IMG/VR virus record: IMGVR_UViG_3300014946_000127 | Origin: a virus | DNA length: 64,000 nt | Direction: 5' to 3' (one strand) | Shown: in pieces, positions 2,055-42,827 of the stretch | Position numbering within the stretch: the first letter of the stretch is position 1 | Layout: each line of letters opens with the position of its first letter | Notes under the pieces: model-generated | What the model saw: the letters and a program-made list of their open reading frames with translations, nothing else | Databases searched by the model: none | Told to the model about the DNA's origin: nothing | Position numbers and translations under genes: made by a program

Positions 2055-2057
2055 ACC

Positions 2058-2628: not shown

Positions 2629-2646
2629 AATGTTTTGTATTTATGG

Positions 2647-3930: not shown

Positions 3931-3933
3931 ACG

Positions 3934-14782: not shown

Positions 14783-14853
14783 AATTATACTGAGCGCAAC
14801 TGTGGGGTCGAACCACAACTTTATACATGGAGTGTATATGTGCTACCGTTACA
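14783..14853 (-). tRNA. Phage-encoded tRNA, 71 nt, anticodon loop ACTCCAT (TCC if 34-36, giving Gly; C at position 33 is atypical)
   Basis: Minus-strand cloverleaf: acceptor GCGTATC/GTTGCGC (one mismatch), D-arm GTGT-AACGGTA-GCAC, anticodon stem TATAC/GTATA, T-arm TGTGG-TTCGACC-CCACA, discriminator T. No encoded CCA. Confidence 0.5.
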
Positions 14854-14916
14854 CTAGATACGCAGAACACGTGGGTACGAAGCCCCCACGTTTGGCTCTA
14901 TCTACAACCTATTGAA

Positions 14917-27640: not shown

Positions 27641-27862
27641 ATTCTTGGGTTGTATATAACTTCATATACATTTTGTGTTAAATCTGCCGAGCGTATTCCC
27701 GGCAGACTTAAACACAAATTCAATCATTCTTCAAGCTACTTACAAGAACACTTATGCAATTCTTCGGCTTCTTTCAGTCGTGTCAGATAGCAATTTCTAT
27801 CACCCCGTAAACTGCACAAGCTTTAATGTTCTTGCTTTTGCTTATCGCTACTATAAGGGTTG

Positions 27863-28018
27863 AGGTAGCAGCAGGACTCGAACCTGCAATGCTTGGCAAT
27901 CTTCTACATCTTCCGTGTAACACTGGATTGGTTCGTTTTACAATGATGCCCAGTTTTCATAACATCGTAACCAAGTCTACTAAGAGTTGTCAGCGTCTAC
28001 CAATTCCGCCATACTACC
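27863..28018 (-). tRNA. Aberrant class-II-like tRNA-like gene (156 nt) with tRNA-Leu-like 5' acceptor/D-arm and a ~66-nt insertion between D-arm and anticodon arm
   Basis: 5' GGTAGTA-TG-GCGGAATTGGTAGACGC (D-arm as in bacterial tRNA-Leu) ... anticodon-arm-like TTACA-CGGAAGA-TGTAG, 16-nt variable region, T-arm GCAGG-TTCGAGT-CCTGC, acceptor 3' TGCTACC pairing 7/7 with the 5' end (one G-U). Confidence 0.4.
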
Positions 28019-28137
28019 AAATTTGCGTGACTTTCCACGCTGTCAGATTGTTTGCAGTACCAACTAAATGCAAGGAATCTAACCTTGTCGCTTACTTTAC
28101 ACAACCTCAATCAACGAGCCGAGTTTAACGGCATTAG

Positions 28138-28207
28138 AGCGGAAACAGGGAATCGAACCCCACTCTTTGGCTGGAATGCCAACGCTCTACCGATGAGCTA
28201 TTTCCGC
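28138..28207 (-). tRNA. tRNA-like gene, 70 nt, with an apparent 6-nt anticodon loop ATTCCA (Trp/Gly-type; noncanonical)
   Basis: GCGGAAA-TA-GCTC-ATCGGTA-GAGC-G-TTGGC-ATTCCA-GCCAA-AGAG-TGGGG-TTCGATT-CCCTG-TTTCCGC-T. Perfect acceptor, D and T arms; the anticodon loop is one nt short. Confidence 0.55.
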
Positions 28208-28432
28208 AAATGCCTGTCTATTCCAAGCTGTCAACATTATGAACCGCCATGTAGTCACCGTCAACATTCACATGATTTTGTGAAGATCCACCTTGATAGA
28301 TACTCTCTGGGACTTATTTCGGATTTACCCTTCCCCTTTCTATCTACTACTCTATCGGCTTTCCTATCTTCAGACAGACCCGACACCCGTCTTTAATTCG
28401 GATAGAGTGGTGCGTTCATTGATACAAGACTG

Positions 28433-28505
28433 TGGGAACTCAAGGATTCGAACCTTGTTCTTCGGATTTTCAGTCCGACGCATAGACCAACTTTGCTAAA
28501 TTCCC
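28433..28505 (-). tRNA. tRNA-Phe (anticodon GAA)
   Basis: GGGAATT-TA-GCAA...TGC-G-TCGGA-CTGAAAA-TCCGA-AGAA-CAAGG-TTCGAAT-CCTTG-AGTTCCC-A; 73 nt. U33, GAA, A37. Confidence 0.75.
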
Positions 28506-28565
28506 TTTTACCTATGCTGTCAAACCACCGCTTGCTTGGCAAATTTGACAGCATTCCATCAAACA

Positions 28566-28988
28566 CTATTGATGGTTGGCTAATAATTCCGGATTATCGT
28601 AAATGTTTCCTAATATTTTAACATCACTTTCTGTATCTGTATGCAAATCACTAATTGCATAAAATCCAGCATCTTCAAAATCATTTTCTGTAACATTGAA
28701 AATAAACCCACCTTGATGCCATTCTACATAACCTTTCAAATAGTGCTCTTGTTCTCCATGACAGCCATAAGAAAAGAATAACCATTCTACAATATCCCCT
28801 TCGTAAATTTCTTTTCCGTTCTTATCTAACAAGCCGGTGAACTGACCTACGGTATCTATATCTACTTCTATCGAAGACAGATCAATTGAATCAATATCGT
28901 TGATGTAGTCTTCATCAGCAAGGAATCCATATACCCATTTTTTGTTATCAATTCGCTTTCCTCTAAATTTAATAGTTCTCATACTCAA
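28566..28988 (-). CDS. YopX-family phage protein
   Basis: 140 aa. IKFRGKRIDNKKWVYG...GQFTGLLDKNGKEIYEGDIV matches the YopX signature. Confidence 0.65.
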   Translation of the reverse strand: MSMRTIKFRGKRIDNKKWVYGFLADEDYINDIDSIDLSSIEVDIDTVGQFTGLLDKNGKEIYEGDIVEWLFFSYGCHGEQEHYLKGYVEWHQGGFIFNVTENDFEDAGFYAISDLHTDTESDVKILGNIYDNPELLANHQ

Positions 28989-29389
28989 AACAAACTTGCT
29001 TGTTCATATTTAGGTTCTTTCTTCTCAACTACTCCGAACTCTGTTATTTCAATACCAGTTTTTTCAGTAAGCCACTTTGCCAAAATATGACGATGGCAAA
29101 AATCACCCGGTTTTTCGTAACAACAGAGAGCGACATCTTTGCCTTCACTTAACATTTCAATTTGTTTCACGACTTGGTTCGCATCTTGGCTTGCCAATAT
29201 TCTGTCGTAAAGTTTTAGGTATTCATCGTGGGAACAAGGTCCACTTACCATATAACGAGTCGGGCAAACATTCAGCATTTGTGGAATACCAGCTATAAAT
29301 CTGGGTTTTCCGATTGCTACGCAAATCATATTAACTTCCGCCTCTTTCAGTTTTCGGATATTACCGAAATACGATGTAAAAATCTTCAT
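28985..29389 (-). CDS. DUF488-like protein
   Basis: Probable start MKIFTSYFGN. C-terminus ...VALCCYEKPGDFCHRHILAKWL resembles the conserved DUF488 end (LLC-E...CHR). Confidence 0.5.
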   Translation of the reverse strand: MKIFTSYFGNIRKLKEAEVNMICVAIGKPRFIAGIPQMLNVCPTRYMVSGPCSHDEYLKLYDRILASQDANQVVKQIEMLSEGKDVALCCYEKPGDFCHRHILAKWLTEKTGIEITEFGVVEKKEPKYEQASLF

Positions 29390-29420
29390 TTTTTTGTTCT
29401 TTTTACGGTGTAAATATATA

Positions 29421-29447
29421 AAAAGTATATGAAATTCATGCACTTTT
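29421..29447. promoter_or_regulatory. Palindromic motif copy 3
   Basis: AAAAGTATATGAAATTCATGCACTTTT immediately upstream of the DUF488-like gene start. Confidence 0.45.
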
Positions 29448-29466
29448 AGTGCTAAAATTGTCTAAA

Positions 29467-29718
29467 CTACCACGTTTTTATTATTTCTATGACTTTTTCA
29501 TATTCTCCAGCGTGTAACAATGACGCTTCGGTATGGAAATTTATATCAGTTAATCGATATTCTATAAGTAAACAGGTATATTCATCACCAATTTTGCGAT
29601 GGTTTTGATGTTTCTTGGCAAGTGATTCCAATTCTTTGCAAGATAGACAGTAGTGATTCTTGCGATTAAGATTCCGCATCTTATTAACATCTTCTTCTTT
29701 CAAATCTTCGTATGTCAT
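29467..29718 (-). CDS. Hypothetical small protein (Cys-containing)
   Basis: 83-aa ORF. Confidence 0.4.
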   Translation of the reverse strand: MTYEDLKEEDVNKMRNLNRKNHYCLSCKELESLAKKHQNHRKIGDEYTCLLIEYRLTDINFHTEASLLHAGEYEKVIEIIKTW

Positions 29719-29874
29719 GGCTTAATCCTCCTCAAATTCGTCTTCATATACAAAAATATGTTTACCACTTCCACAAATCTCGACTTCCCATTTATGTATG
29801 TTCGGCCAATATTCGATTAGAATTATGTTTCTATAGCCTTTATATGGCTCTTTCAATGTTGCTGTTCTCATTGC

Positions 29875-30300
29875 TCATGATTTATGTGATTTGATACTCG
29901 TTTCTTTTAGCTTAGCGAAATAATCAATCCGATCTTTGTCTTCATATCGCAATCGCTGGGAACATCTTTCTATGCTGTCTCTCTGTTTTTTACTAAGCAT
30001 ATCTGCATGTTTAGCCCATTCGATTGAACCGGCAGGAAGAAACTCAAACTTAGGGAAAAATTTTGTTTCATATGAAAACCTCACTATTCTAGCATATTCC
30101 CTCAAATCGTTTGTTTCTGGGTCTGTGGAATTAGGGGTCTCTATTGATTCACATACAATTACCATACAGGGCTGGTATAGAAACACAATTTTATTTGCTT
30201 TCATTGCTTTTAATGCTAAAAATGTGGATCTATATAGTGATTTTGATAATGCAACATAAGCAGAACTCCATCTTTGTAATGCTGCCCTTCTGCTACCCAA
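29875..30300 (-). CDS. Hypothetical protein
   Basis: 141-aa ORF. Confidence 0.4.
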   Translation of the reverse strand: MGSRRAALQRWSSAYVALSKSLYRSTFLALKAMKANKIVFLYQPCMVIVCESIETPNSTDPETNDLREYARIVRFSYETKFFPKFEFLPAGSIEWAKHADMLSKKQRDSIERCSQRLRYEDKDRIDYFAKLKETSIKSHKS

Positions 30301-30644
30301 TATCCATTCCTTCTTTTGGTGAACACTTTTGGTGCTCCTTCCAATTCTGGTAGGACTTCATATTCGCTGGCATAATAGTCTATACATTTGGTTTGATTGA
30401 AAGTAACTTCAATCTTGCATGGAGAAATAATTTTAGTAACTGTTGCCGCTCGTTTATCCGAGTAATAGCAGACCGTACAGCCAAGTCCAACTTCGGGTAC
30501 GAGATTTTTGATTGCGTCCAACTTCGCTTTTTCCTTTTGCTCTTGCCAATCTGAGAATTTTATACCGCCGGGATATTTGCGACTTTCTATTTCGTGTAGA
30601 ATAGCAAAACTCCCCTTGCTTGTTAATTTCTTTGATATTTCCAT
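30216..30644 (-). CDS. Hypothetical protein
   Basis: 142-aa ORF, overlaps the previous ORF in another frame. Confidence 0.4.
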   Translation of the reverse strand: MEISKKLTSKGSFAILHEIESRKYPGGIKFSDWQEQKEKAKLDAIKNLVPEVGLGCTVCYYSDKRAATVTKIISPCKIEVTFNQTKCIDYYASEYEVLPELEGAPKVFTKRRNGYWVAEGQHYKDGVLLMLHYQNHYIDPHF

Positions 30645-30655
30645 TGCTCTGTATT

Positions 30656-30940
30656 TTATCCGTTATACGTTGATGTTATTTCTTCTGCACGGAGTTCTTT
30701 TCTTAACTCACCGTTCCTATATATTCTCACGGCTACTATTCTAACTGTATCGGATAGGAAACGCCCGCAGTCATTAGCTAGCTTAACTTGTAATTGAATA
30801 GCTTTTGCTAAATTTTTAGTACGCTTTCTTATGGTTTTCTTGAATCCGAAAACATAATCTTCGGTATCGATTTCGAACTGGTAGGTGTCAGAGTGTAGTA
30901 TCTGACTCAATTCAGCTGTCATTTGTTGTATTCTATTCAT
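30656..30940 (-). CDS. Hypothetical protein
   Basis: 94-aa ORF. Confidence 0.4.
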   Translation of the reverse strand: MNRIQQMTAELSQILHSDTYQFEIDTEDYVFGFKKTIRKRTKNLAKAIQLQVKLANDCGRFLSDTVRIVAVRIYRNGELRKELRAEEITSTYNG

Positions 30941-31030
30941 TGCTCTTATTGTTTAAGTGGTTATTTTGGATATATAAAGATACAAATAATATATTGAATA
31001 TCAGTAGTTTGTGTTTAAAATATTGCTTAC

Positions 31031-31264
31031 TTAAACTTTGTTTAACTTTTTGTCTCTCAGCGACTTTTGGTCAAGTATCTGTGCAAACAAACCAGTTGCA
31101 AACACTATTTCACGTCCATACTTATCCTTGCATCGAATGTATATATCTGCATCTTTACCAGACATATAAAGCTCATACAGATTATTGTATGGACGAATGC
31201 AATCACGGAACATTTCCGATGCTGTCTTTGGCTTACGATAACCACCTCTGCCCATACTTTTCAA
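31031..31264 (-). CDS. Hypothetical small protein
   Basis: 77-aa ORF. Confidence 0.35.
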   Translation of the reverse strand: MKSMGRGGYRKPKTASEMFRDCIRPYNNLYELYMSGKDADIYIRCKDKYGREIVFATGLFAQILDQKSLRDKKLNKV

Positions 31265-31508
31265 ATAATAATGATTTACTTTTCTCTATCTCCTTGTCTG
31301 TGTCGATTCCGAGTTGTTGATAGAAAACAGAATTACCGGATAGGCATTCATGTGCTATCTTCAATGTTCTACGTTCTTCTTTGGAGAAACCAACTCGAAA
31401 AGTAGAGAATATAGCTAATGCTTCTTTCAAATAGCCGGAGTGGAGTAGGGATATAGCTTTACTTGTTTTGGTTTCCATAAGGGTAAATTTCGATGTCTTC
31501 AAAATCAT
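31233..31508 (-). CDS. Hypothetical small protein
   Basis: 91-aa ORF. Confidence 0.35.
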   Translation of the reverse strand: MILKTSKFTLMETKTSKAISLLHSGYLKEALAIFSTFRVGFSKEERRTLKIAHECLSGNSVFYQQLGIDTDKEIEKSKSLLFEKYGQRWLS

Positions 31509-31631
31509 CGTCAGTAAGGGCGATTTCTTCTGTGTTTATCATTTCTTCTACTTTCTCATGAGCGGAATCCATGTTTTCTGCTTCTACCACCACTACCTTC
31601 GAGTAGGTTTCGATTATTCTGAATTTGTATT

Positions 31632-31892
31632 TCATTCTATATCCCCTTTATTTAGTTTTGAATTTTGCAATCCTGCATGATACCCATCAATCCATATCAA
31701 CAATTCTGTGGGTTTCAGATACCCGCTTATCCTGTGACATGGAATGCTCCCTTCTATTACTCTATCCCCGGTAAATGATTCGTCGTGTATTACGAACGCA
31801 TAATACCCATAAGAGAATGACGAAGCGGTTAGATGCATTCGATTAGCATGACAGTACTTTTCTAATTGTTTTAATGCTTCTTTTTGTGTCAT
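31632..31892 (-). CDS. Hypothetical small protein
   Basis: 86-aa ORF. Confidence 0.35.
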   Translation of the reverse strand: MTQKEALKQLEKYCHANRMHLTASSFSYGYYAFVIHDESFTGDRVIEGSIPCHRISGYLKPTELLIWIDGYHAGLQNSKLNKGDIE

Positions 31893-32080
31893 AACTGATG
31901 ATTTATAGATTTTCGTTGATTTTCTTTTCTGTCCGTTTAATGAATCGTTTAATCATATCTTCTAACTCATTCCTTAAATCGTCCTTGTCAAGATATGAGC
32001 GGAAAGTTTTCGATTGTAAAATATCGATGATAGCATACGATTTTTATCCGTTAGATTTAACAATGATTATTCGTCACTTA

Positions 32081-32722
32081 TTACCCCCATAATTTTACTG
32101 CAAGATCATAATTCTTTTGAGCTTCATTTACTGCTTTTTTGGCATAAGTAAGAGTGTAGGCGTGTTCACGTGGATATTTGCCTGACTTTACACCTTCATG
32201 ATATTCTTTGGCTTCTTCCAGCTTGTGCGCATAAAAGTCAATACTTTCCGGCATAGATAGGTTGATGGTTGTAGCACGCTTGTCCCAGTATTCGGCTTCT
32301 CTTTCATGTTCTGTTGCTTTGTCGCTAAATTCAACGCTTTTACCCATGTTTCTCCAAGCATCCGCTATTGCTTTTCTGTGTCGTCTTTCGCTATGATGTC
32401 CTACTTTAATAGGTTCTCCAAGTGAAAGAAAATCTCTGTCCTTATTTGACTTTTCGAAATATCCATGACTTTTTTTATTTGCTGATACAGACCATTCACG
32501 TCTACGTTCGGCTCTACGTTTTGCCCATTCTTGTACGTTGAATCCGTCAGCCCTTACGATGGAGTAATAATAGAATCCGTCACGCTCAAATATCAGATTA
32601 AAAACGATACTTTCATTCTCTTTTCCATACTTGGTGGTGACTGTGATTTCTTCTCCTTTTTCGTGCTTCTCATCGCACTTTGCCAAAAATACGTTTGGCG
32701 CAAACTTGTAATATGTGTTCAT
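32081..32722 (-). CDS. Hypothetical protein (basic, His/Arg-rich central region)
   Basis: 213 aa. Its leader is part of repeat copy B. Confidence 0.45.
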   Translation of the reverse strand: MNTYYKFAPNVFLAKCDEKHEKGEEITVTTKYGKENESIVFNLIFERDGFYYYSIVRADGFNVQEWAKRRAERRREWSVSANKKSHGYFEKSNKDRDFLSLGEPIKVGHHSERRHRKAIADAWRNMGKSVEFSDKATEHEREAEYWDKRATTINLSMPESIDFYAHKLEEAKEYHEGVKSGKYPREHAYTLTYAKKAVNEAQKNYDLAVKLWG

Positions 32723-33075
32723 TGCTCTTATGTGTTATATAGGGCTTTCGCCCTGTCGGTTAAACTTAGAATTTTTCAATATTTAGATTACTATTAATTA
32801 TAAATCTGCGACCACATTCGCATATCACATGTGTATCGGTAATACGTGTTATTTTTCGCACTACATCATCGTGCGTTACATAATTCCCATTTTGTAAATC
32901 ACCCGAAATTCTGTATCTCAAACCTACCATTATTTCTGTTACTTTCATCGTTCTTGTCTTTTAATTGTTAGTAATGTTGTTTGTTTTAGTATTGTAAAGA
33001 TACTCATTATCAGAGAGTTATCCAAATATTTACAACCTTATTTTACTCATAATCAAGAGTTTAACTTTTGGTAAC
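32705..33075. repeat. Dispersed repeat copy B (~370 bp)
   Basis: See copy A. Includes the -33 TTTG / -7 TATCTTTA-like promoter on the minus strand and the hairpin TAGGGCTTTCGCCCTA. Confidence 0.7.
32766..32948 (-). CDS. Small duplicated protein (60 aa), copy 2
   Basis: 99% identical to the 20817..20999 product. Confidence 0.5.
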   Translation of the reverse strand: MKVTEIMVGLRYRISGDLQNGNYVTHDDVVRKITRITDTHVICECGRRFIINSNLNIEKF

Positions 33076-33222
33076 TTGAAATGAAATATGAATGAAATGG
33101 AGTATCACGGACAATAGGTTTAATCTATTGGTTTTTATTAAAGTGACCCGGCTTTTGTTTCCACAGTGATATAGCCGGGCCACCGCTCTTGTTGTTTTGG
33201 AAGAGCACGTGTATTTGGTGTA

Positions 33223-33510
33223 TTAATCTCCACAATAACGCCCGCTTTGGTTTCTGTAATACTCTATTATACCTCTTTCCATTGCTGAGTCGAATACAAC
33301 CGATTCGGGCTTTTGTGCGGATTCCAACTTTCTCATTAACCGGCGGGCTTCTTTTTCGGCTTTGCGGGCTTCCGCTTTCATCTTAAACCATGCGTTCCTC
33401 AAACAAGCACTGAATGACTGGCAGAACTCACGGCCGAGAACCGAGATAGAGCGTTTATACATTGACCATGCCATTTTGAAAAGTTGCGATTTGTCGATTT
33501 TCGTTTTCAT
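33223..33510 (-). CDS. Hypothetical basic protein
   Basis: 95-aa ORF. Confidence 0.4.
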   Translation of the reverse strand: MKTKIDKSQLFKMAWSMYKRSISVLGREFCQSFSACLRNAWFKMKAEARKAEKEARRLMRKLESAQKPESVVFDSAMERGIIEYYRNQSGRYCGD

Positions 33511-33685
33511 ATCTTTGTTTTAGTTTTATGATATAAAGATAATGTATTAGATTATGTTTTACAAATATTTCATCATATAAAACATTATGTTTATCATTAA
33601 TTAACAATGTAGTACATTATGATTTAGCCATATTCAAAATATTATTCATATCTTTGATGAAAATAATATTGTAATACCTTACATT

Positions 33686-33961
33686 ATGGAAATGAAGATT
33701 AAAGAGTTACTTTCAAAACAAGGTAAGACTGCGGTATGGTTGTCTAAACAAATAGGAGTTACTGACGTAAATACAAGAAATATTGTGAATGGAGTAATAA
33801 AACCCAAGTTAGATACACTTGAGAAGATCGCTAAGGCATTAAATGTACCCATGTGGGAGTTGTTTGTATCACCGGAAGAAGTACGCCCCAATATCGATAC
33901 TACTGTATTGACGTGTCCTAAATGTGGAGCGAAATTAAAGGTAATTGAGTCAAAAGATTAA
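33686..33961 (+). CDS. XRE-family HTH protein with C-terminal zinc ribbon
   Basis: 91 aa. HTH_3-like AVWLSKQIGVTDVNTRNIVNG...LEKIAKALNVPMWELF; CPKCGAKLKV. Confidence 0.6.
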   Translation: MEMKIKELLSKQGKTAVWLSKQIGVTDVNTRNIVNGVIKPKLDTLEKIAKALNVPMWELFVSPEEVRPNIDTTVLTCPKCGAKLKVIESKD

Positions 33962-33964
33962 GCC

Positions 33965-34726
33965 ATGAACGAGGAAATAACAAAGTTATTGCTTCAATGC
34001 GACACGTTGAAAGCCCGTTTGTTGGGGCTGCGCCCATTACCACCGGATGCCCTGCAAAAGATAGAGAATGCGTTTGCCATTGAATACACCTATGAAAGCA
34101 ACCGGATCGAGGGAAATACGCTCACACTGCAAGAAACGGAGTTAGTAGTGAACGAGGGAGTTACTATCGCCGGAAAGTCAATGCGGGAACACCTTGAAGC
34201 GATTAACCACGTTGAAGCGATAGACTACATAAAGGACTTTGCAAAGGGAGGTATGGAAATATCGGAGCGCACAATCAAGGAAATACACGCTATTGTGCTA
34301 CATGGCATAGATAGAGATAATGCCGGACGTTATCGGTGCGTGCCTGTTATGATTTCGGGAAGTACACATGTTCCTCCACAGCCGTATTTGATACAACCAC
34401 AAATGGAAGCTTTTATGACAAGGTTTGCCGAAATGGAGGAACAAGGCATTCACCCGGTGCTCATTGCGGCTTACCTTCATGATGAGTTGGTACGCATACA
34501 CCCGTTTATAGACGGGAACGGGCGCACATCTCGGCTTCTGATGAATCTATACTTACTCCGCAACGGTTATACGCTGGTAAATCTCAAAGGCAGCAACGAG
34601 GACAAAATAAGCTATTACAAGGCACTGGAAGCCTCTCATACGGAGAACAATCCGGCAGAGTTCCAAAAGGTCGTTATACGGGCTGAAATAGAATCTTTAA
34701 GCCGGTATCTCTCGATTGTAGGATAG
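33965..34726 (+). CDS. fic: Fic/Doc family protein (AMPylase-type)
   Basis: 253 aa. HPFIDGNGRTSRLLMNL is the canonical Fic motif HPFx(D/E)GNGRxxR. Confidence 0.8.
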   Translation: MNEEITKLLLQCDTLKARLLGLRPLPPDALQKIENAFAIEYTYESNRIEGNTLTLQETELVVNEGVTIAGKSMREHLEAINHVEAIDYIKDFAKGGMEISERTIKEIHAIVLHGIDRDNAGRYRCVPVMISGSTHVPPQPYLIQPQMEAFMTRFAEMEEQGIHPVLIAAYLHDELVRIHPFIDGNGRTSRLLMNLYLLRNGYTLVNLKGSNEDKISYYKALEASHTENNPAEFQKVVIRAEIESLSRYLSIVG

Positions 34727-34888
34727 TATTGTCTGGATTTGAATTAAAGATTATGAATGAAGCAATGATTTCATTTGTAACTCGTTTAAGTTTATTTATT
34801 ACCTAATCACGACCTAAATTTAAAGTATAAGGCGACAAAAAAGGAGGGCGTTTTGCGTCCTCCTCGTTATGGATCCTGCTTTATATGA

Positions 34889-35221
34889 TTACCACAAAGC
34901 AACCTTTCCGCCTATTCCCAAATCAAGGGTGGCCGTTGTAATTCCCAAAGCCTTAAAAACTTTGCTCATAGTAGGAAGTGTTATTATACACTTACCGCTC
35001 TCCAACTTACAAATTTGAGAGCGTTTCACGCCTACTTTTTTGCCTAATTCCTCCTGTGTGAGGTTCTGTTTGAGCCTTTCTGCCTTGATAGCCTCTCCAA
35101 TGTAATAAGCCTGCAAATCATCTTTGAGTTGAGCTTCCATAGCGTCCCTTTCGGGAGTGCCCACCTTTCCCCATACATCATCTATCAATTTGTCTGCTGG
35201 TGTGAAATTCATCTTTGCCAT
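34889..35221 (-). CDS. HigA-like antitoxin (XRE HTH)
   Basis: 110 aa. HTH LKQNLTQEELGKKVGVKRSQICKLESGK. Directly downstream of the Gp49/HigB-like gene. Confidence 0.6.
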   Translation of the reverse strand: MAKMNFTPADKLIDDVWGKVGTPERDAMEAQLKDDLQAYYIGEAIKAERLKQNLTQEELGKKVGVKRSQICKLESGKCIITLPTMSKVFKALGITTATLDLGIGGKVALW

Positions 35222-35226
35222 ATCTG

Positions 35227-35619
35227 TTACTTTTTATCATTAAAATATTCTTTCCTTATTCTCTCTGCCTTTTCTATCTCCTTTTTAGGGGTTTTCTGCG
35301 TCTTTTTCACTATCCCGTGAGTAACCACTACCAAAGCCCCTTTCTTGGTGTCCCAGAAAGCAAACAGACGGTAACAAATTCCGTTGAAAAGCGTCCGTAA
35401 CTCCCATATATCAGAGTTTTCCAATTTCTTGAAAACGTCCTTTTCTATTAGACCACTCTGCACTCTACGAATATTATACGCTATCTTCTGCTGTGCCTTG
35501 AATGGCTGCTGCCTTACAAAACTGTTCGCCTCATCGCTTAGTATTATGGTTATCGTATGCCCGTCCATATCGTTTCTTGTTATATTTACAAAGATAATAA
35601 TTTGTTTCCAAATTAGCAA
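35227..35619 (-). CDS. HigB/Gp49-like (RelE/ParE superfamily) toxin
   Basis: 130 aa. ...IWELRTLFNGICYRLFAFWDTKKGALVVVTHGIVKKTQKTPKKEIEKAERIRKEY matches the phage Gp49-like / HigB family. Confidence 0.6.
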   Translation of the reverse strand: MLIWKQIIIFVNITRNDMDGHTITIILSDEANSFVRQQPFKAQQKIAYNIRRVQSGLIEKDVFKKLENSDIWELRTLFNGICYRLFAFWDTKKGALVVVTHGIVKKTQKTPKKEIEKAERIRKEYFNDKK

Positions 35620-35784
35620 ACAATCGTATCTGTTTTTATTCTATTTTAGAAAAATTTCTCTCTCGGCTTGCCGTTCGTCTTACTCCACCCGGCATGTAAG
35701 CTCGGAGGGGAGATGTTCAGGAAATTGGGATCCGATATATTATAAACATCGGTATCTTTATATTAATGCTTAAAATATTACGTT

Positions 35785-36084
35785 TCATATCGCCTTAAAA
35801 TCCAATCGGCCTAAATTGTCATTTATAGACTTAATGATACTTTCCTGTATCAAGGTTCCGCATTGGGTTGTTAGTTGTATAAAGTGATCTGTATCATTAT
35901 CTGATACAATTCCGTACTTGTTCTTCCAGTTGCAAAAAGAGTTCTCTATATCCCGCAATCCTGCCAACATGATTAATAACTCCCTTGTCTGTCCACTGAT
36001 GACTGCGTTACGCATGGTATCGACGCTACGATGTTCGATTACTTCTACTGTCTGCTCATCTTGTTTTAATTCGGTTGTTTCCAT
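35785..36084 (-). CDS. Hypothetical protein
   Basis: 99-aa ORF. Confidence 0.4.
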   Translation of the reverse strand: METTELKQDEQTVEVIEHRSVDTMRNAVISGQTRELLIMLAGLRDIENSFCNWKNKYGIVSDNDTDHFIQLTTQCGTLIQESIIKSINDNLGRLDFKAI

Positions 36085-36291
36085 ATAAAAAAAGTTTATT
36101 GTTTAACGATGTTCGGAATAGCGGGAATCCTCCCGGACACGTCCGCTACCGGTGGGATAGCTTACTTTCACAAGCGGCTGCCCCGTCTATAATTTAACAA
36201 ACATATAAAAGCACCCTATTAGGGTAGGGTAACCCCGGAGCGGATAAACCGCCCCTTTGGATTTATAATAACTTTATGGTTATAGCTGATA

Positions 36292-37122
36292 TTATGCCGA
36301 GAGTTTGGTATTGAACAATTCAATGACAAACTTTCTGCCTGATTCGGTCCAATACATGTGTTCTCTTGATTTCTGTACTCCGTTATCCATATAAGGATAG
36401 GGGACATGTTTGGTAAATCCTTTACTGCGGTATTTGGCTGTGAGGAAGTAAACAGAAGATTGTCTGTATTGAACTCCCCATTCACATAGTAGTTTGTTCA
36501 GCTTTATAGCCGATACACCTAAGAATGCCGCTATCATGTTTGTCGTCACAAGTCCTTCACTCGACATGATTTCATCGTAACATTTACCTTTGGGGGCGAG
36601 GACCTTTATAGTATCGTCCTTTATGGATATTTCCTCGTCTTTTCTCTCGATGATAATTTGTTTCTGGGCATTTTCAACTTCGAGCTGCTTTAATCGTTCT
36701 TCTCTTTTGGCAAGAGTGGCTTGTGCAATGGTTAGCGCACGTGCCATGATTTCTTCTGGTGTGTCTTCTTGCTTGGTGGAGATGTAGCCGCCTGTGGTGC
36801 GGATAGCAGGTAAAACTTCGGAAGTCACCCAACGTTTGAATGCTTTTGCAGTGGGTAATTTGCTACCAAATACAAGAGAATATACTCCACTTTCATTGAT
36901 AATTGTTGTACTTTGTTTAAATCCTTGATTGTCAGGGATAGCGTGTTTTGCGCTATCCTCATTATCAACGTGTTGTGAGATTGCAGAAACAGGATTTGAA
37001 TATCCTAATGCAATTGCGACATCTCTGCCAACGAAATAGGGTTGATTGTTGACTTCAAGGGCACGGATTTTTCCGAATTCAGATGATTGGAATAGCTTTA
37101 ATTCATTCATATCTGTAACCAT
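36292..37122 (-). CDS. Antirepressor (Bro-N domain + KilA-C domain)
   Basis: 276 aa. N-term ELKLFQSSEFGKIRALEVNNQPYFVGRDVAIALGY...AKAFKRWVTSEVLPAIRTTGGY is Bro-N. The C-terminal region resembles phage antirepressor KilAC. Confidence 0.7.
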   Translation of the reverse strand: MVTDMNELKLFQSSEFGKIRALEVNNQPYFVGRDVAIALGYSNPVSAISQHVDNEDSAKHAIPDNQGFKQSTTIINESGVYSLVFGSKLPTAKAFKRWVTSEVLPAIRTTGGYISTKQEDTPEEIMARALTIAQATLAKREERLKQLEVENAQKQIIIERKDEEISIKDDTIKVLAPKGKCYDEIMSSEGLVTTNMIAAFLGVSAIKLNKLLCEWGVQYRQSSVYFLTAKYRSKGFTKHVPYPYMDNGVQKSREHMYWTESGRKFVIELFNTKLSA

Positions 37123-37391
37123 TTAAAGATATGTTTGTGGCAAACGAAAAGCGGCTGCCATATACGCTGGTTACAGATGGTGAAATACCCTCGAAGAGCA
37201 TACACAATATCTACGTATAGGCAACCGCCAATATGTAAAAGTATAGGCATAAAAAAAGCCCAACTTCTATTGAGCAAATTAACCGCTTGCTCTGCGAGGT
37301 AAATGCAATTACCATCTGTAACCATTACAAAAGTATTGAATTTTACGAGGTAATGCTAATTATTGGTCACAAAATTAGAGCATGGAATCTT

Positions 37392-37655: not shown

Positions 37656-37985
37656 TTATCCGTATTTTATCGAGCAAGCCACAAACAAGGCCATAGCGCC
37701 GAATATGGCACTTGCTACTGCGATGATGGTAGTTATAATCCATTTCCAGTCTATGGGATTGCGTAAGTTAGGATTGGTGGCAAAATAAATTTTTCCATAT
37801 TTCGTTATGCGGACATCTTCAAGTTCATGCCCCTCGTTCCATAGACCTTTGACAAGACCTAATCTTTCCAGCGAGTCTACGCACGAAATGAATATATGGT
37901 GCGGATAAGTGTTTGGGCAGACAATCCCGCTGCTGATTAAACGCAACACTTGCTTCTCCTGTTTTGATAGCTTGATTTGCTTCAT
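37656..37985 (-). CDS. Small tail-anchored membrane protein
   Basis: 109 aa, C-terminal TM helix WIITTIIAVASAIFGAMALFVACSI. Confidence 0.45.
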   Translation of the reverse strand: MKQIKLSKQEKQVLRLISSGIVCPNTYPHHIFISCVDSLERLGLVKGLWNEGHELEDVRITKYGKIYFATNPNLRNPIDWKWIITTIIAVASAIFGAMALFVACSIKYG

Positions 37986-37995
37986 GACCGTTTCT

Positions 37996-38433
37996 CTACA
38001 ATGACAGCAAAAACTTATACGCTTTAAGATACTTGTTCAATCTCGGTAAGTCTTCCTCTATTATTTGAGGTAAACGGGTTACGTCCAAATTGTCCTCCAA
38101 GTCGTGCAGCTTTACTTGTCTTCCAATAGGATTCAATCTACACCGTTTTATGAAATCGTCATAGATCTCATCATCGTTACGAGTGACAGAAAGTATAGCA
38201 TCCACAATATTATGAGGAAAGCCTTCCATTAGTAAATATTCAGCAGTAACTTCGGTATCTTCTATCGTGTCATGCAATAAAGCTACTATGCGCTCCTCAT
38301 CTGTTTTGCATCGGTTTGCCACACGGATAGGGTGGAAGATGTAGGATGCTCCAGCTTTATCGGTTTGTCCGCTATGGGCTTTGACGGCGATTTGAAGGGC
38401 TTTTTCTAATAGTGAATTTTTAGTACATGTCAT
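37996..38433 (-). CDS. Small alarmone hydrolase (RelA/SpoT/Mesh1-type HD domain)
   Basis: 145 aa. KAHSGQTDKAGASYIFHPIRVA ... ALLHDTIEDTEV ... KLHDLEDNL reproduce the HD-domain (p)ppGpp-hydrolase signature motifs. Confidence 0.75.
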   Translation of the reverse strand: MTCTKNSLLEKALQIAVKAHSGQTDKAGASYIFHPIRVANRCKTDEERIVALLHDTIEDTEVTAEYLLMEGFPHNIVDAILSVTRNDDEIYDDFIKRCRLNPIGRQVKLHDLEDNLDVTRLPQIIEEDLPRLNKYLKAYKFLLSL

Positions 38434-38650
38434 ATTCTGATTTGGGTATTTCTATACCTCCTAATATTATCTCGCAAACGGTTTCATTTGACTGTGATAT
38501 TTCCTTTTCATTGCGTCTTCCTTTGTGCTTAATGAAAGCATTTGTCTTTCCATTTTCAAGAACAAGACGTATTGCAGATTCTTCAAAATCGTCTAAAATA
38601 TAGACTTCTTCACCCGCTTGTAATTTTTTTTGTAGGATATTTGGGTTCAT
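38420..38650 (-). CDS. Hypothetical small protein
   Basis: 76-aa ORF between the MuF fusion and the hydrolase. Confidence 0.4.
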   Translation of the reverse strand: MNPNILQKKLQAGEEVYILDDFEESAIRLVLENGKTNAFIKHKGRRNEKEISQSNETVCEIILGGIEIPKSEYDMY

Positions 38651-38674
38651 ATTTATATGTAAAGATAATTATTT

Positions 38675-41311
38675 TTATCGGAAATGACTATAATATTCAA
38701 TAGATTTTTCTACTATTTTTAGTGCTTCATTACTTGATTTATCGAGTATGCGCCATTGCTCATAATATTTATGTCCGAGACCACCTTCCATTCCTGTCTC
38801 ATTATGTATTTCTTCCCAACGTTTTTTTCCAAGAATACGTTTCGCATCTTCCGGCCTTTCTTTTGCAAAAATCATACGTTCCGTATTAACCTGTATTTCC
38901 GCAGTAAGACCATTTGTGGTTCTTATGTTTACGATGTTTCCACTATATCCCATGAATGATTCTGGTTTTTGCCTTTTAAGGCGTAAGAAGCCTTCCGTTT
39001 TGTACAGTTCTTCTAACACATCTTCTATTCGGGACTTCGGAACGATTATGGTTGTTCTTACAGAATCTTTAATATCGTATGGAGTTATACCTTCTGTGAT
39101 GACTTTTCTTGTGATAGAAGTTGTACTCTTGAAATTAATAGGCGTAACATAACCACCATTTTTTATTGCGATCCGTTCTGCTATGGACTGTACTTCATCT
39201 CCCACTGATGATGCTCGTTTTACAATTTCCGAAATGGAACTTTCAACTGTTATTTTCTGATAAACGGATTTATTATCACGCAAAAAGTATGGTAAAGTAT
39301 TACGTTTTTTTGCTGTGCTGATGCGCTCTTGATTATCTAATACCCACTTTTTGAAAGCGTCCGGTACGTCTTTAACTTCGTTCACGCTTGCTGTCGTGGC
39401 TTCACTCCGACCGTCCCATTCCCAAAATTCTTCTTCGGTTTTTAGAATGGGTATCTTGTAACATCGACAATTGCTACCCCAAAAGCATTTTCCGTTCCTG
39501 CGGATATACATGATATGGTTGCGTTCCAGTGTCAAATCATAGACAAGACCATCATAATGCTGTATCTCTTTATTAAATACCGAAGACGTGACAGAATAGC
39601 ATTCACGTATAGAGTAACAATCATAGTTTGACTTTATAATTGGACCATTCGCTTTGTGTGATACTCCTGCTTTATTTATAGAAAAAGAAGGCCTATGTCC
39701 TGATTTCAGTATTAGTTCGGATAAGTCTCCTGCCATGCGTTCAGATGTGGTGAAGTATATGATTTCATCTTTATCTGACTTGAATTCATTACCGTGATTC
39801 CCTATGAATGATCTGCAAGGACGCTTATAACCGTCGCAAAGGACAAAGGCATCAAGAAAAATCCTTATCTGCCTCTTTGAAGCATTCTTTATAACATACG
39901 GGACAAATTTGTTTATACACCGTCCAAAAATCTTCAAATAGTTGCGTATGGTAGTGTTATAAAATACGACCTTTTGTTTTTCAAGATGTGGTTCAAATCC
40001 CATACGCTTGATGCAATCAACTATTTTATCTCTTGCCGTTTCTCCCTCTTGCTGGGATATTACGACGCCTGAATTGCTCATTGTACTACCGTCAGAAAGC
40101 CAATACCCCATAAATTCGCAGAACAAATCAAATGGGATTATCAAATCATCAATTTGGTAAAATTCGACATCGCCTGATTCATACTCGCAACCTCTATAAA
40201 ATCTGCCTTTACCTTTCGTGTATTCTTTCGCTTGGCAATTCTTAATTTTTCCGTCATTCTTATTCAAATACACCATATTGTGTTCTGGGGTTACGAGACA
40301 ATCAAGAGAGCGATTGTAGAAGTGTACCATTTCTCCATAATATGAGAAACATTGTCTATCGATAAATTCAACCCATTCTATATTACGTGTATTTGGATTT
40401 AACGATAATATCAAATCATCATCTAAAACGTCTTTGAATAACTTCCAACCTCTATTCGTCAGAACTTCGCTATCATCTGAATAACAAAGGGGATGCCAAC
40501 CGGTCCATTGGAAGTCTTTCGGGTATTTTCCAGCTAGTATATCGCAAATGTCTTGGAAAGGCTTTCCGTTGCAAGTATGGTTGTTGCTTAATTTGATTTC
40601 ATATCCCACCACGAAGTCCATCTGTTGCCAGCGTAGGTTTTCTGCTTGGCGGTATGCCATATTGATTTCGGAAGCAGCCAAACGGATAGAACGATACTCG
40701 CAATCCATTGCCCGTGATGCTTTTCCGAACCTTTCCTTGTAATCTTTTTGTAGTTGCGGGAAATCGAGCAGATATTTGGAGATTTGCTTGCTTAATGTAA
40801 TTGCACTCGTACCTTTTTGAATGGCACATGATATAGCTTCTTCAAGTTCCTGTTTATACAGAGTCGATTGATTCCACAACTTATCTGATATGGTAAATCC
40901 TTTATCCTTACGTTGCTGAAACGCTTTCAATGCATCATTATTGGGCTGGTATAGGATTTCGTATTTCTCCTTTCCTATGGTTGCGCCATAAGTTTGCAAT
41001 ACTTTGTTGGCAAGAAGATCTTGAACTTCGTTGCTGTTTTTCCATTCTTCAGAAGTGCCACTATATATTACAGCTCCGATGTCCTCAACGAACCTTTCTT
41101 GTAAGTCTCTTATCCGTTTTCTTGTTTGGGGATAATCCGACCACATAAACGGCCTATCACTATCAATGGTAAAATCGGTAATTCCGACTATTTTAGCCGC
41201 CTCTAAATTCAAATCCTCGTATATGGATTCCACAAGCATGACGTATTTGGCGAGCCGTTTATTCAGCTCGCCGTACTTGCGTTTCTGATTTGGAGTTTTC
41301 GGCTTTGCCAT
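38675..41311 (-). CDS. Head morphogenesis protein (SPP1 gp7 / Mu F-like) interrupted by an intein and carrying a C-terminal RelA/SpoT-like nucleotidyltransferase (toxSAS-like) domain
   Basis: 878 aa. The extein junction reconstitutes ...GWHPL|CRCYKIP (the MuF HPxCRC motif). The C-terminal 180 aa carry DSVRTTIIV, GYSGNIVNI, EIQVNTERM and HKYYE, which resemble the RelA_SpoT synthetase motifs DxxGxRVV, GYRSLH, EIQIRTxxM and HKxxYK. Confidence 0.7.
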   Translation of the reverse strand: MAKPKTPNQKRKYGELNKRLAKYVMLVESIYEDLNLEAAKIVGITDFTIDSDRPFMWSDYPQTRKRIRDLQERFVEDIGAVIYSGTSEEWKNSNEVQDLLANKVLQTYGATIGKEKYEILYQPNNDALKAFQQRKDKGFTISDKLWNQSTLYKQELEEAISCAIQKGTSAITLSKQISKYLLDFPQLQKDYKERFGKASRAMDCEYRSIRLAASEINMAYRQAENLRWQQMDFVVGYEIKLSNNHTCNGKPFQDICDILAGKYPKDFQWTGWHPLCYSDDSEVLTNRGWKLFKDVLDDDLILSLNPNTRNIEWVEFIDRQCFSYYGEMVHFYNRSLDCLVTPEHNMVYLNKNDGKIKNCQAKEYTKGKGRFYRGCEYESGDVEFYQIDDLIIPFDLFCEFMGYWLSDGSTMSNSGVVISQQEGETARDKIVDCIKRMGFEPHLEKQKVVFYNTTIRNYLKIFGRCINKFVPYVIKNASKRQIRIFLDAFVLCDGYKRPCRSFIGNHGNEFKSDKDEIIYFTTSERMAGDLSELILKSGHRPSFSINKAGVSHKANGPIIKSNYDCYSIRECYSVTSSVFNKEIQHYDGLVYDLTLERNHIMYIRRNGKCFWGSNCRCYKIPILKTEEEFWEWDGRSEATTASVNEVKDVPDAFKKWVLDNQERISTAKKRNTLPYFLRDNKSVYQKITVESSISEIVKRASSVGDEVQSIAERIAIKNGGYVTPINFKSTTSITRKVITEGITPYDIKDSVRTTIIVPKSRIEDVLEELYKTEGFLRLKRQKPESFMGYSGNIVNIRTTNGLTAEIQVNTERMIFAKERPEDAKRILGKKRWEEIHNETGMEGGLGHKYYEQWRILDKSSNEALKIVEKSIEYYSHFR
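39470..40486 (-). other. Intein (339 aa) with LAGLIDADG homing-endonuclease domain inside the MuF gene
   Basis: Begins CYSDDSEVLT (block A Cys) and ends ...KCFWGSN followed by Cys. LAGLIDADG-like motifs FMGYWLSDGS and FLDAFVLCDGYK; block F-like VYDLTLERNH. Confidence 0.65.
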
Positions 41312-41414
41312 ACATGCCGTTTTATAGCTTTAAGATATATTTTAAGCCAGCGGCATAAGCAATATACCCACGCCACCTTTATCTTGAAAACTGATATTTC
41401 CCATAATTATCTAA

Positions 41415-42827
41415 TTAAATTGCTGACTCTCCAAATATATTGTCGACCCTGCTTTGTGAAGTGATAGTCTCCTCTTGCCGTATCTGTTCCAATGTAGCCT
41501 GCGCGTCATTGCTATAACCTGCCTGTTGGATAGATTCAAGCTGAGACATGACTGGTTTTCCGCCATTAAGTTTCAATAAGCGATCTGCTGTGGCATCTTC
41601 ATCTTGTTGTATGAAGGGGGTAATGATATGTTCAATCTCTATATTATCAATTTCGCTTGACCATGATGTATTCATGTGCTTTAAAAATTCTTTGATGACA
41701 CTTGCCTCACGTTCGAAAAGCTCAATCCATGAGCCGCTTTCGTCTCCAACCTTTAAGTGTGCGTCGGTCAAAAGCATTTGTCTGGCATCGTAACCTATGT
41801 TCCCCAAAGACTTCATGTTGTCAAAAGAAACGTCCGGCATCTGCGATTGCATCCAATAGAGTTTAAGCAGGGTTTCCACATGATACTTCAATGCTTCGAT
41901 AGATTGTGACCATGATACATACGATACGTCTCCATTATATTCCACACGGTAAACTCTACGGCTTTCTCCTTTATCTTCTCCACCTTTTATACCTCCGGCT
42001 ATTTTCAAAATTGGTGCTGAATTATAGGCAATCACGTCGGAGTTGCGAGAAAGTGTATATTCCAATTCTTTGCGAATACGAGTTAATCCGTGGTATATAG
42101 GTACAGGTCTAAATGCGTATGCACCGGGTATTTTCATTAATCGTATTTGTTCAACAGTACCGACAGGTTCCCAACCTTTACCATTTTGTTTCCATTTATA
42201 ATGTTTGTCCGATGTGTATGTCTCAAAATAAGTAATTACTTCGTCCTTTACCTTTTTGGTGTATTCAAAGGACATTGCAAGCATATCGTCAAGCTCGTCG
42301 ATCAATGGATATAGTTTTACTCCCTCCATTGGCGAGTATGTCTTGCATTTTAGCTTATACTTACTATTAAAACCATATAATGTATTGGTCTTTTCTACTA
42401 CGTACCAAATTGTGAAAATTTCGCATGAGGCGAAATACGCATTTGCACGTTTAATATTTTCTGTATCGATTCGGGCATACTTGTAAATTGCCTCTATAGC
42501 CTTTGCTATCTGTTGGCGGACTTCAAATCCTTCTGTGTTGTGGTAGATACGTTTTACAGGAATGGCAAACATGAACTCAGTCATACGCTTTGTAAGCAGC
42601 TTTTCAAGGCCAATGTAAATGCGTGATGCTTCTTCTTTTGTCCCGTCTTTGCGTATTTTATCTTTTCGTGTTATAGTATCTTTGGCTATTTCATGGAATG
42701 ATGGTTCATACGCTTTAATAAGAAATTCCCATGAAGGAACACAAACGGATTTTCTTTTTAAGTCATTGATAATATTATCAACGGGTCGGGCACTGTTTAA
42801 TATAGCGGTTATTTCGTCCATAGGCAT
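41415..42827 (-). CDS. Portal protein candidate (SPP1-type)
   Basis: 470 aa, immediately upstream (in transcription order) of the MuF-like gene, the canonical portal-MuF arrangement. Confidence 0.5.
   Translation of the reverse strand: MPMDEITAILNSARPVDNIINDLKRKSVCVPSWEFLIKAYEPSFHEIAKDTITRKDKIRKDGTKEEASRIYIGLEKLLTKRMTEFMFAIPVKRIYHNTEGFEVRQQIAKAIEAIYKYARIDTENIKRANAYFASCEIFTIWYVVEKTNTLYGFNSKYKLKCKTYSPMEGVKLYPLIDELDDMLAMSFEYTKKVKDEVITYFETYTSDKHYKWKQNGKGWEPVGTVEQIRLMKIPGAYAFRPVPIYHGLTRIRKELEYTLSRNSDVIAYNSAPILKIAGGIKGGEDKGESRRVYRVEYNGDVSYVSWSQSIEALKYHVETLLKLYWMQSQMPDVSFDNMKSLGNIGYDARQMLLTDAHLKVGDESGSWIELFEREASVIKEFLKHMNTSWSSEIDNIEIEHIITPFIQQDEDATADRLLKLNGGKPVMSQLESIQQAGYSNDAQATLEQIRQEETITSQSRVDNIFGESAI

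Follow-up and report, generated by a model that had tools for sequence, protein, structure and literature searches.

MuF toxins and related systems

The closest described relatives of the locus analyzed here are toxins fused to phage MuF proteins, the family of SPP1 gp7, which is a capsid-internal, DNA-bound protein (cited in PMC10083569). RelA-like MuF toxins were listed by Jamet et al. 2017, who proposed their loading in capsids and co-injection (PMC5576092). The MuF-Apk2 protein of a B. caccae prophage (BACCAC_01148) is a toxin producing pApp, ppApp and pppApp (Ahmad et al. 2023, PMC10083569), and its full-length form was reported to be less toxic than the toxin domain alone. BcTis1 (BACCAC_01147) and the (p)ppApp-specific Aph1 (BACCAC_01146) each confer partial protection and, together, full protection (PMC10083569). 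Aph1 does not cleave ppGpp, and its residues D24 and R119 were shown to confer specificity for (p)ppApp (PMC10083569). Further Apk2 members were characterized (PMC12226406), and Apk2-like and Aph1-like genes were noted among the MuF toxins of Bacteroidales (PMC11699363). The locus studied in this work spans positions 37,996 to 41,311 of a viral DNA of 64,000 nucleotides (IMG/VR virus record IMGVR_UViG_3300014946_000127), which is called the window at its full length. With a probability of roughly 85%, it is the head morphogenesis/toxin module of a temperate phage, formed by a MuF-Apk2 gene with bicistronic immunity that carries a selfish class-1 LAGLIDADG intein.

Judged from sequence, the toxin/antidote module is an orthologue of the characterized Apk2/BcTis1/Aph1 system and not a new one. 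It displays the same three-gene order downstream of the portal gene and the same MuF-Apk2 fusion, with identities to the B. caccae type of 72.7% for the spliced MuF-Apk2, 72.1% for the toxin domain, 65.3% for Tis1 and 81.8% for Aph1. The B. caccae-type gene differs by its lack of an intein, by its motif WHPNDLC without the +1 Cys, and by a host genus other than Barnesiella. Loci of this type (L029-L031, whose Aph1 is 100% identical to the crystal sequence) were found when this sequence served as query against viral contigs; the scan of genome contigs with the toxin-domain profile returned two species representatives only, and B. caccae was not among the matches. An earlier note on this DNA had regarded the association of a virion-borne alarmone synthetase with a hydrolase antidote as an unusual one, possibly serving injection. 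Both the association and the injection idea had already been published (PMC5576092, PMC10083569, PMC12226406, PMC11699363), and the intein is the sole new element of the locus.

Two further systems are close in organization. Another known MuF-Apk system resembles the window in its MuF N-domain and Apk toxin domain, in an immunity protein of the protein-binding kind and in a pppApp hydrolase that is interchangeable, but its sequences are distant (motifs RYT, GxN and YH versus RTT, GYSGN and EIQVN here) and no intein is reported for it. The Bxa/Bsi/BAH system of a Bacteroides stercoris phage (PMC11699363) has an N-domain of the same Bacteroidales MuF family and also combines one binding and one enzymatic immunity protein. 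Its toxin is an ADP-ribosyltransferase (ART), unlike the Apk2 of the window, and its N-domain carries no intein, as can be told from its publication as residues 1–322.

The MuF protein and its intein

The central gene (38675..41311, on the minus strand like all features of the locus described below) codes for a precursor of 878 residues in which a MuF N-domain, an intein, the MuF carboxyl part with a linker and a putative Apk2 (p)ppApp-synthetase toxin domain follow one another. It was found, together with the HD-domain gene lying two genes downstream (37996..38433), at the coordinates and on the strand given in the earlier note, whose assignment of the product to the MuF head morphogenesis proteins is borne out by matches to PHROG families of head morphogenesis or minor head proteins (phrog_7625 with E=4.3e-89, phrog_1657 and phrog_115; range 4e-89 to 4e-16). 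MuF membership was settled, after a miss with Pfam, by the profile-profile comparison (hhalign) with Pfam-positive Phage_Mu_F proteins, in which the probability is 97.9% (E=6.2e-13) and the HPxCxC motif aligns on the canonical HPNCRC. The N-terminal domain is identified by this homology as MuF and is encoded beside the portal gene. It would be the capsid- or portal-associated carrier of the toxin domain.

The N-extein (aa 1–275, 40487..41311) is the MuF domain ending in WTGWHPL. The class-1 intein follows (aa 276–614, 339 residues, 39470..40486), an in-frame insertion relative to empty alleles. It begins with CYSDD (CYSDDSEVLT), ends with FWGSN (NHIMYIRRNGKCFWGSN) and is followed by Cys615 of CRC, the start of a C-extein stretch (aa 615–688, CRCYKIPILK onwards, 39248..39469) that completes the MuF HPxCxC motif and continues as a linker. 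The intein features a block B (LVTPEH), two LAGLIDADG motifs (GYWLSDGS and FVLCDGY) and a block F (VYDLTL). The LAGLIDADG homing endonuclease domain covers intein residues ~101–295 (39602..40186), with motifs LFCEFMGYWLSDGS (D132) and IRIFLDAFVLCDGY (D218), and corresponds to the segment missing from mini-inteins. Splicing in silico yields a protein of 539 residues that reads WHPLCRC, with DFQWTGWHPLCR as the splice-junction peptide. Restoration of the family motif by removal of a 339-residue LAGLIDADG intein, as claimed in the earlier note, is matched exactly by natural alleles. The intein-free protein of Caecibacteroides pullorum (L001) reads WTGWHPL/CRCYKIPILK (the slash marks the insertion point) and that of a Prevotella metagenome-assembled genome WHPN/CMC. 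A degenerate search for the spliced junction retrieved 26 viral contigs with an uninterrupted motif, most having exteins 98–100% identical to those of the window, and more than 35 viral contigs with exteins of 98–100% identity read WHPL/CRC without a gap. The intein boundaries are fixed to the residue because these intein-free orthologues and alleles carry WHPL/CRC ungapped.

The residues expected of a splicing element and of a nuclease are conserved. C1, T66-x-x-H69, D317, N339, the +1 Cys615 and both LAGLIDADG aspartates (D132, D218) are invariant in eight alleles that are 62–83% identical, and the WGSN ending is a family-wide trait of these MuF inteins. Between intein alleles, the proportion of nonsynonymous differences (pN) is 0.10–0.29 versus a saturated proportion of synonymous differences (pS) of ~0.8, in the Hint-N, endonuclease and Hint-C parts alike; pN and pS are given in place of dN/dS because synonymous sites are saturated. 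These values indicate long-term purifying selection on the putative splicing and nuclease functions. Weaker support comes from comparisons with solved structures. The amino part of the Hint domain matches the AceL NrdHF intein (6ZGQ, E=2.3e-5). In a structure model built from an eight-sequence alignment, with a mean confidence (pLDDT) of 55, the top Foldseek matches were the TliVMA intein, PI-SceI and I-DmoI (E=1e-6 to 1e-2, TM-score ~0.2), and the significant matches were all endonuclease-bearing inteins or LAGLIDADG enzymes. Cys276 and Cys615, with cyclization of Asn614, would splice the 878-residue precursor to a MuF-Apk2 of 539 residues and a free endonuclease of 339 residues.

This intein resembles those described in the large subunit of the terminase (TerL) and in portal proteins of phages (Kelley et al. 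2016, PMC5050341; phiCbK TerL, PMC3556154), which are also of class 1 with a LAGLIDADG endonuclease, lie in the most conserved motif of a morphogenesis protein and occupy only part of the population. It differs from them in that the MuF protein and its HPx/CxC site do not figure in the surveys of TerL and portal inteins, and in that MuF inteins end with Ser/Gly-Asn, not His-Asn. MuF is absent from the phage intein survey (PMC5050341), the word "intein" is absent from four MuF toxin papers (PMC10083569, PMC12226406, PMC11699363, PMC5576092), and no description of a MuF-type intein was found in the open-access literature that was searched. That annotation pipelines and papers on MuF toxins leave it unmentioned is explained by curated intein models scoring below threshold. 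The intein is genuine, apparently undescribed and more broadly distributed than a single gene would imply, yet it belongs to a class of selfish elements that is well known.

Polymorphism and distribution of the intein

The occupation of the site varies within a single phage lineage. A census anchored on the N-extein alone (56 viral contigs with at least 93% identity) counted 39 empty alleles, 13 full inteins and four mini-inteins. The Apk2 cassette, with Tis1 and Aph1, accounts for 24 contigs (19 empty, two full, three mini), the ART-2 cassette for 29 (20 empty, nine full, no mini) and the ART-1 cassette for three (none empty, two full, one mini); every intein state is therefore shared by two or more cassettes. 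Among the 19 empty Apk2 loci, two are truncated at a contig end and miss one or both immunity genes. All 17 occupied alleles have TGT as the +1 Cys codon and all 37 empty CRC alleles have TGC, one more empty allele being DRC (Fisher p=2e-14 for the association, with shared ancestry uncorrected). This pattern fits co-inheritance of the donor flank with the intein and suggests that precise loss of an intein is not how the empty alleles arose.

The best 120 protein matches convey the same picture. Exteins that are 97–100% identical are combined with differing intein states, namely the intein of the window, a second allele 65–66% identical to it, and a mini-intein of 148 residues lacking exactly the endonuclease region. 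Among these matches the same N-extein and intein are also fused to ADP-ribosyltransferase toxins or to no toxin (P0107-P0120). The lineage swaps its Apk2 cassette for ART toxins, one of them accompanied by an ADP-ribosylglycohydrolase. The recombination breakpoint of the toxin cassette lies near the end of the aa 615–688 stretch, at YFL(R/K)DN.

Only 74 residues lie between the intein and the toxin domain that follows, in a toxin that is dangerous if active at the wrong time, and cysteines flank the intein junction. The intein could have been domesticated as a regulated switch, for example through redox-conditional splicing via Cys276 and Cys615, or as an autoprotease resembling the pretoxin-HINT (PT-HINT) domains of other polymorphic toxins (Pfam PT-HINT, in P0253) that releases a toxin piece. 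The lower toxicity of full-length B. caccae Apk2 compared with the isolated domain (PMC10083569) agrees with such a role, though that protein is intein-free. This alternative is quite improbable, given that ~70% of phages otherwise 98–100% identical have no intein, that the same intein resides in MuF proteins with other toxins or none, that its endonuclease is under purifying selection and that mini-inteins exist as decay products. The polymorphism, the variety of toxins, the selected endonuclease and the mini-inteins argue for a homing cycle rather than for a required regulatory module. In that cycle the endonuclease would cut intein-free muf alleles of co-resident phages and the intein would be copied in with a few flanking bases. 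Note that PT-HINT profiles gave no match in the window protein; a PT-HINT releasing domain was ruled out by the endonuclease, the +1 Cys, the terminal Asn, the location inside the MuF motif and the precise absence from sibling phages.

The intein was also searched exhaustively against 1.84 billion cluster representatives (50% identity), which gave 7524 matches at E<=1e-3 and 553 at E<=1e-30. Among the best 149 matches, 90 have a MuF N-domain detectable by BLAST, and the dominant junction is HPx/C…N/CxC; at least 90 of these 149 clusters bear the intein at this same HPx/CxC site. The Pfam domain of canonical Phage_Mu_F proteins, portal-MuF fusions among them, stops exactly at the intein start. 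Remoter relatives are found in other proteins, such as a glycosyltransferase with several inteins. Some are repeated within one protein, with seven matched stretches in the 2583-residue P0250 and four in the GT4 glycosyltransferase P0233. In distant lineages the occupied sites are HPN/CRC or HPN/CMD, and most empty sites, the B. caccae type included, are HPN-DLC, -DMC or -DRC. In the B. fragilis and B. caccae-type lineages (L029-L108, for instance L053 versus L042-L052) the motif's Cys and Asp have traded places, and due to this swap the HPN-DLC, -DMC and -DRC alleles lack the +1 nucleophile that an intein needs. Replacement of the +1 Cys may be a resistance of the host gene to intein invasion. 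The endonuclease would make its break ~210 nt upstream of the toxin-domain junction, and this break may favour the exchange of toxin/immunity cassettes that is observed between co-resident phages. A broader proposal joins these two ideas to a still ongoing homing cycle and holds that HPx/CxC, though undescribed, may be among the intein sites most heavily colonized in tailed phages; it is speculative and rather doubtful as a whole.

The toxin domain

The C-terminal Apk2tox domain (aa 689–878, 38678..39247) resembles the adenosine 3'-pyrophosphokinase Tas1. Its 190 residues match residues 251–432 of the Tas1 crystal sequence (6OX6) with E=2.5e-27 for the single sequence and 1e-34 for a six-sequence profile. 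Motifs aligned with Tas1 are the Asp/Arg motif IKDSVRTTIIV (IKDxxRTTIIV), GYSG, the Glu motif AEIQVNT, and GHKYYEQWR (GHKYYExWR). In the search of PDB with the toxin-domain profile, Tas1 was the only match, and no chain of FaRel, CapRel, RelQ, RelP or another RelA/SpoT-superfamily member appeared at E<=1. Of the two labels given to this domain in the earlier note, RelA/SpoT superfamily is upheld by the Tas1 match, while toxSAS-like is not, no toxSAS chain being found at that threshold; a direct comparison with Pfam RelA_SpoT remains below cutoff (E=0.012). These alignments place the domain in the Tas1/Apk clade and not in the toxSAS group of toxin-antitoxin toxins. It can be expected to form (p)ppApp, and neither (p)ppGpp nor modified tRNA, because it is 72.1% identical to the assayed Apk2tox domain of the B. 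caccae type. The domain would move pyrophosphate from ATP onto the 3'-OH of ATP, ADP or AMP to form (p)ppApp and thereby drain the adenylate pool.

Two characterized systems illustrate the position of this domain. Tas1 (Apk1) and Tis1, a type VI secretion pair of P. aeruginosa (6OX6), share with the window the homologous (p)ppApp-synthetase fold and motifs and an immunity protein of the same Pfam family, Tis1_ImmP. They differ in delivery, which depends on PAAR and the type VI secretion system and not on MuF, and in having no hydrolase immunity gene; the two immunity proteins are marginally similar (E=0.2 to 6OX6_B). The FaRel/ATfaRel toxSAS module with its small alarmone hydrolase (SAH) antitoxin (PMC7229694) also opposes a small HD hydrolase to a (pp)pApp toxin. 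It is, however, a stand-alone two-gene toxin-antitoxin pair with neither fusion to a virion protein nor a Tis1-type inhibitor, and gave no match in the PDB profile search. The domain of the window, unlike a toxSAS module composed of a stand-alone synthetase and an adjacent antitoxin, is fused to a virion-protein carrier of 350 residues.

One alternative for this pair of proteins takes the C-terminal domain for a (p)ppGpp synthetase, or for a toxSAS of the FaRel2, CapRel or PhRel2 kind acting on tRNA 3' ends by pyrophosphorylation, with the HD protein serving as a (p)ppGpp hydrolase of the general type. Membership in the same RSH superfamily, the weak match to Pfam RelA_SpoT and the alignment of the HD protein with Rel/SpoT hydrolase domains (E=1e-9 to 1e-5) are compatible with it. 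The proposal is nevertheless very unlikely: Tas1 is the only solved synthetase relative at E<=1, the identity of 72% is to a domain that makes pApp, ppApp and pppApp (PMC10083569), and the HD protein keeps the equivalents of D24 and R119 of Aph1, which spares ppGpp (PMC10083569). The earlier note had left the product open between (pp)pApp and tRNA pyrophosphorylation; by analogy with the assayed domain, (p)ppApp is to be expected and the tRNA reaction is not.

The immunity genes

The gene lying between the MuF and HD genes, left uninterpreted in the earlier note, codes for a protein of 76 residues (38420..38650) that is 65.3% identical to BcTis1 of the B. caccae type. A gene of this kind is present in every examined Apk2 locus not cut by a contig end, and its exact sequence is found on at least 1000 contigs. 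The 76-residue ORF directly downstream of MuF-Apk2 is consequently assigned as a Tis1-like structural immunity gene (BcTis1/IapK type) and would provide the first line of immunity. A profile of nine Tis1-like sequences run against PDB gave a collinear alignment with Tis1 (6OX6_B), only at a non-significant E=0.2. In the producing cell the Tis1-like protein would block the toxin's active site, as experiments on orthologues showed for Tis1-type proteins. Public records misname it "nicotinate-nucleotide pyrophosphorylase".

The third gene (37996..38433) encodes an HD-domain protein of 145 residues, the putative enzymatic immunity protein, that matches Aph1 in PDB (7SMG, E=1.8e-75) and is globally 81.8% identical to it. 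The earlier note recognized an adjacent small alarmone hydrolase, which is confirmed, and labelled it a (p)ppGpp hydrolase, which is not. The catalytic residues are in place on the alignment, with the HD motif at H54-D55, and D25, R97, D117, R120, K134 and Y135 correspond to D24, R96, D116, R119, K133 and Y134 of Aph1. Since the HD motif and all six Aph-specific residues are conserved, the protein is predicted to act on (p)ppApp and not as a generic (p)ppGpp hydrolase. From its 82% identity to the assayed Aph1 we infer that it would hydrolyze pApp, ppApp and pppApp but not ppGpp, turning (p)ppApp back into ATP, ADP or AMP. In public records this orthologue bears the names "GTP pyrophosphokinase" or "(p)ppGpp synthetase, RelA/SpoT family".

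Aph1 also occurs on its own. Sibling phages with the ART-1 cassette (L105, 5170-6417; L133, L134 and L155) encode an Aph1 that is 95% identical to that of the window, without Apk2 and without Tis1, and they also carry an ADP-ribosylglycohydrolase (PF03747, E=3e-36). In the census, all three ART-1 phages have Aph1 without Apk2 or Tis1. This Aph1 has the look of an orphan (p)ppApp-hydrolase immunity gene and hints, weakly, at exposure of lysogens to incoming Apk2.

Points of weakness in the assignments

A number of results weigh against the proposed identity of the locus. Pfam Phage_Mu_F (PF04233) does not match the window protein even when this is spliced in silico. The penultimate residue of the intein is Ser instead of His, so that it ends with Ser-Asn, Pfam LAGLIDADG_3 (E=0.0027) and NCBIfam intein_Cterm (13.3 bits versus a cutoff of 15.6) stay below their cutoffs, and the positive result of the profile comparisons is the 6ZGQ match. 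Pfam Tis1_ImmP for the 76-residue protein is likewise below cutoff (E=4.8e-4), as is RelA_SpoT for the toxin domain. The structure models are poor: that of the intein has the pLDDT of 55 given above, and the single-sequence AlphaFold model of the 76-residue protein, with a pLDDT of 58, is too poor for a fold search. The codon association at the +1 Cys is uncorrected for shared ancestry, and virion packaging and injection of MuF toxins are unproven even in the published orthologues (PMC10083569).

The penultimate Ser and the curated intein profiles below threshold could be read as signs of a decayed, non-splicing intein, the allele being then non-functional or coding for a precursor of 878 residues that works differently. 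A penultimate His is common in inteins but not obligatory. Decay is hardly credible in view of the invariance of Cys1, the TxxH motif, the block-F Asp, the terminal Asn and the +1 Cys, of the WGSN ending shared across the family, and of the low pN/pS in all three parts. Moreover, the exact 878-residue protein is present on 44 contigs (up to 1.56 Mb, under the database name "hypothetical protein") and more than 50 near-identical clusters are intact. An active class-1 intein in an otherwise known MuF-Apk2 module is accordingly the preferred reading.

Possible delivery of the toxin

The mature MuF-Apk2 would be carried in the capsid and enter cells with the DNA. The same molecular identity can be accommodated by a toxin that is not injected from the capsid, being instead released at lysis as a colonization or fitness factor, or acting in the producing cell during lytic growth. 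Bxa, a MuF-ART toxin of the same Bacteroidales family, targets epithelial cells and favours colonization (PMC11699363), no virion proteomics exists for MuF toxins, and the same lineage exchanges Apk2 for ART cassettes. A role of this type is somewhat unlikely. Synthesis of (p)ppApp requires intracellular ATP, the orphan Aph1 of L105, L133, L134 and L155 is most easily explained by lysogen exposure to incoming Apk2, and SPP1 gp7, as mentioned, is bound to DNA inside the capsid.

Genome organization around the locus

The MuF gene is preceded directly by an SPP1-type portal gene (41415..42827; Pfam SPP1_portal E=7.5e-27, phrog_64 portal E=3.7e-46). The genes downstream form a tight operon, as judged from their spacings: 24 nt separate the MuF stop from the start of the 76-residue gene, this gene overlaps aph1 by 14 nt, and 10 nt separate aph1 from a gene coding for 109 residues (37656..37985) with a C-terminal hydrophobic segment and only weak profile matches. 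The latter, which is not restricted to Apk2, forms the conserved right border of the variable toxin cassette, being 95–100% identical beside Apk2, ART-1 and ART-2. The order portal, MuF-Apk2, Tis1, Aph1 is kept in Caecibacteroides, Prevotella and many viral contigs. Megablast of a 5.3-kb region against the GenBank phage collection gave no match. The spacer between the portal and MuF genes (41312-41414, ~103 nt in the window) is hypervariable in the lineage, from 85 to 1834 nt, the common form having 737 nt and holding an ORF of 120 residues without Pfam match (L007:3325-3687). It is a second insertion hot-spot adjoining the toxin gene.

The whole window is a temperate-phage genome, with a CI-like repressor at 62.7–63.5 kb, replication genes at 52–54 kb and a ParB-like gene. 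The ParB-like gene is followed by the portal and MuF genes, an accessory block, and then the genes for the terminase, the major capsid protein, the tape measure and a tail-fibre-like protein. Database names of near-identical proteins point to a Barnesiella intestinihominis prophage as its source. The gene order of this head module is unusual: the terminase (21250-22761) and major capsid protein (17035-18345) genes are ~13 kb apart from portal/MuF, with accessory genes between (23800-37200). The accessory block includes a Gp49/HTH (HigBA-like) pair (34889-35619), a Fic/Doc-like gene (33965-34726, plus strand), a Bro-N/ANT antirepressor (36292-37122) and an amidoligase-like protein of 695 residues (23813-25900).

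Other regions of the window stand out by strand, composition or tRNA content. Two plus-strand genes lie within the minus-strand tail module at 12410-14061, where GC is 0.34 and the skew is reversed. The first codes for an HSDR_N-type endonuclease (phrog_4225 E=9e-123; PF04313), and a tRNA-Gly is next (14792-14863). The patch may be an inserted mobile or defence cassette. The ARAGORN call at 28137-28207, beside a normal tRNA-Phe (28432-28505), is a "tRNA-???" whose anticodon is given as two bases, "tc"; it could be an odd or degenerate phage tRNA. GC reaches 0.50 at 2001-6000, versus ~0.37 elsewhere, within a tail-fibre-like gene of 1097 residues (3934-7227) and a gene of 427 residues (2647-3930).

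Significance for MuF proteins and their toxins

The intein explains why MuF genes can be 340 residues too long and missed by domain models, and the cloning of "full-length" MuF toxins from Bacteroidales must take it into account. It also singles out HPxCxC as the site under the strongest constraint in the MuF domain, which is poorly understood. With this module, the experimentally defined Apk2/Tis1/Aph1 family gains a member from a Barnesiella phage that is common in the human gut, and the orphan Aph1 of sibling phages bears on the question of whether virions deliver MuF toxins. A single lineage that has empty, full, divergent and mini-intein alleles, a flank marker and three interchangeable toxin cassettes provides a natural system in which the homing of inteins and the exchange of polymorphic toxins can be studied in the gut virome.

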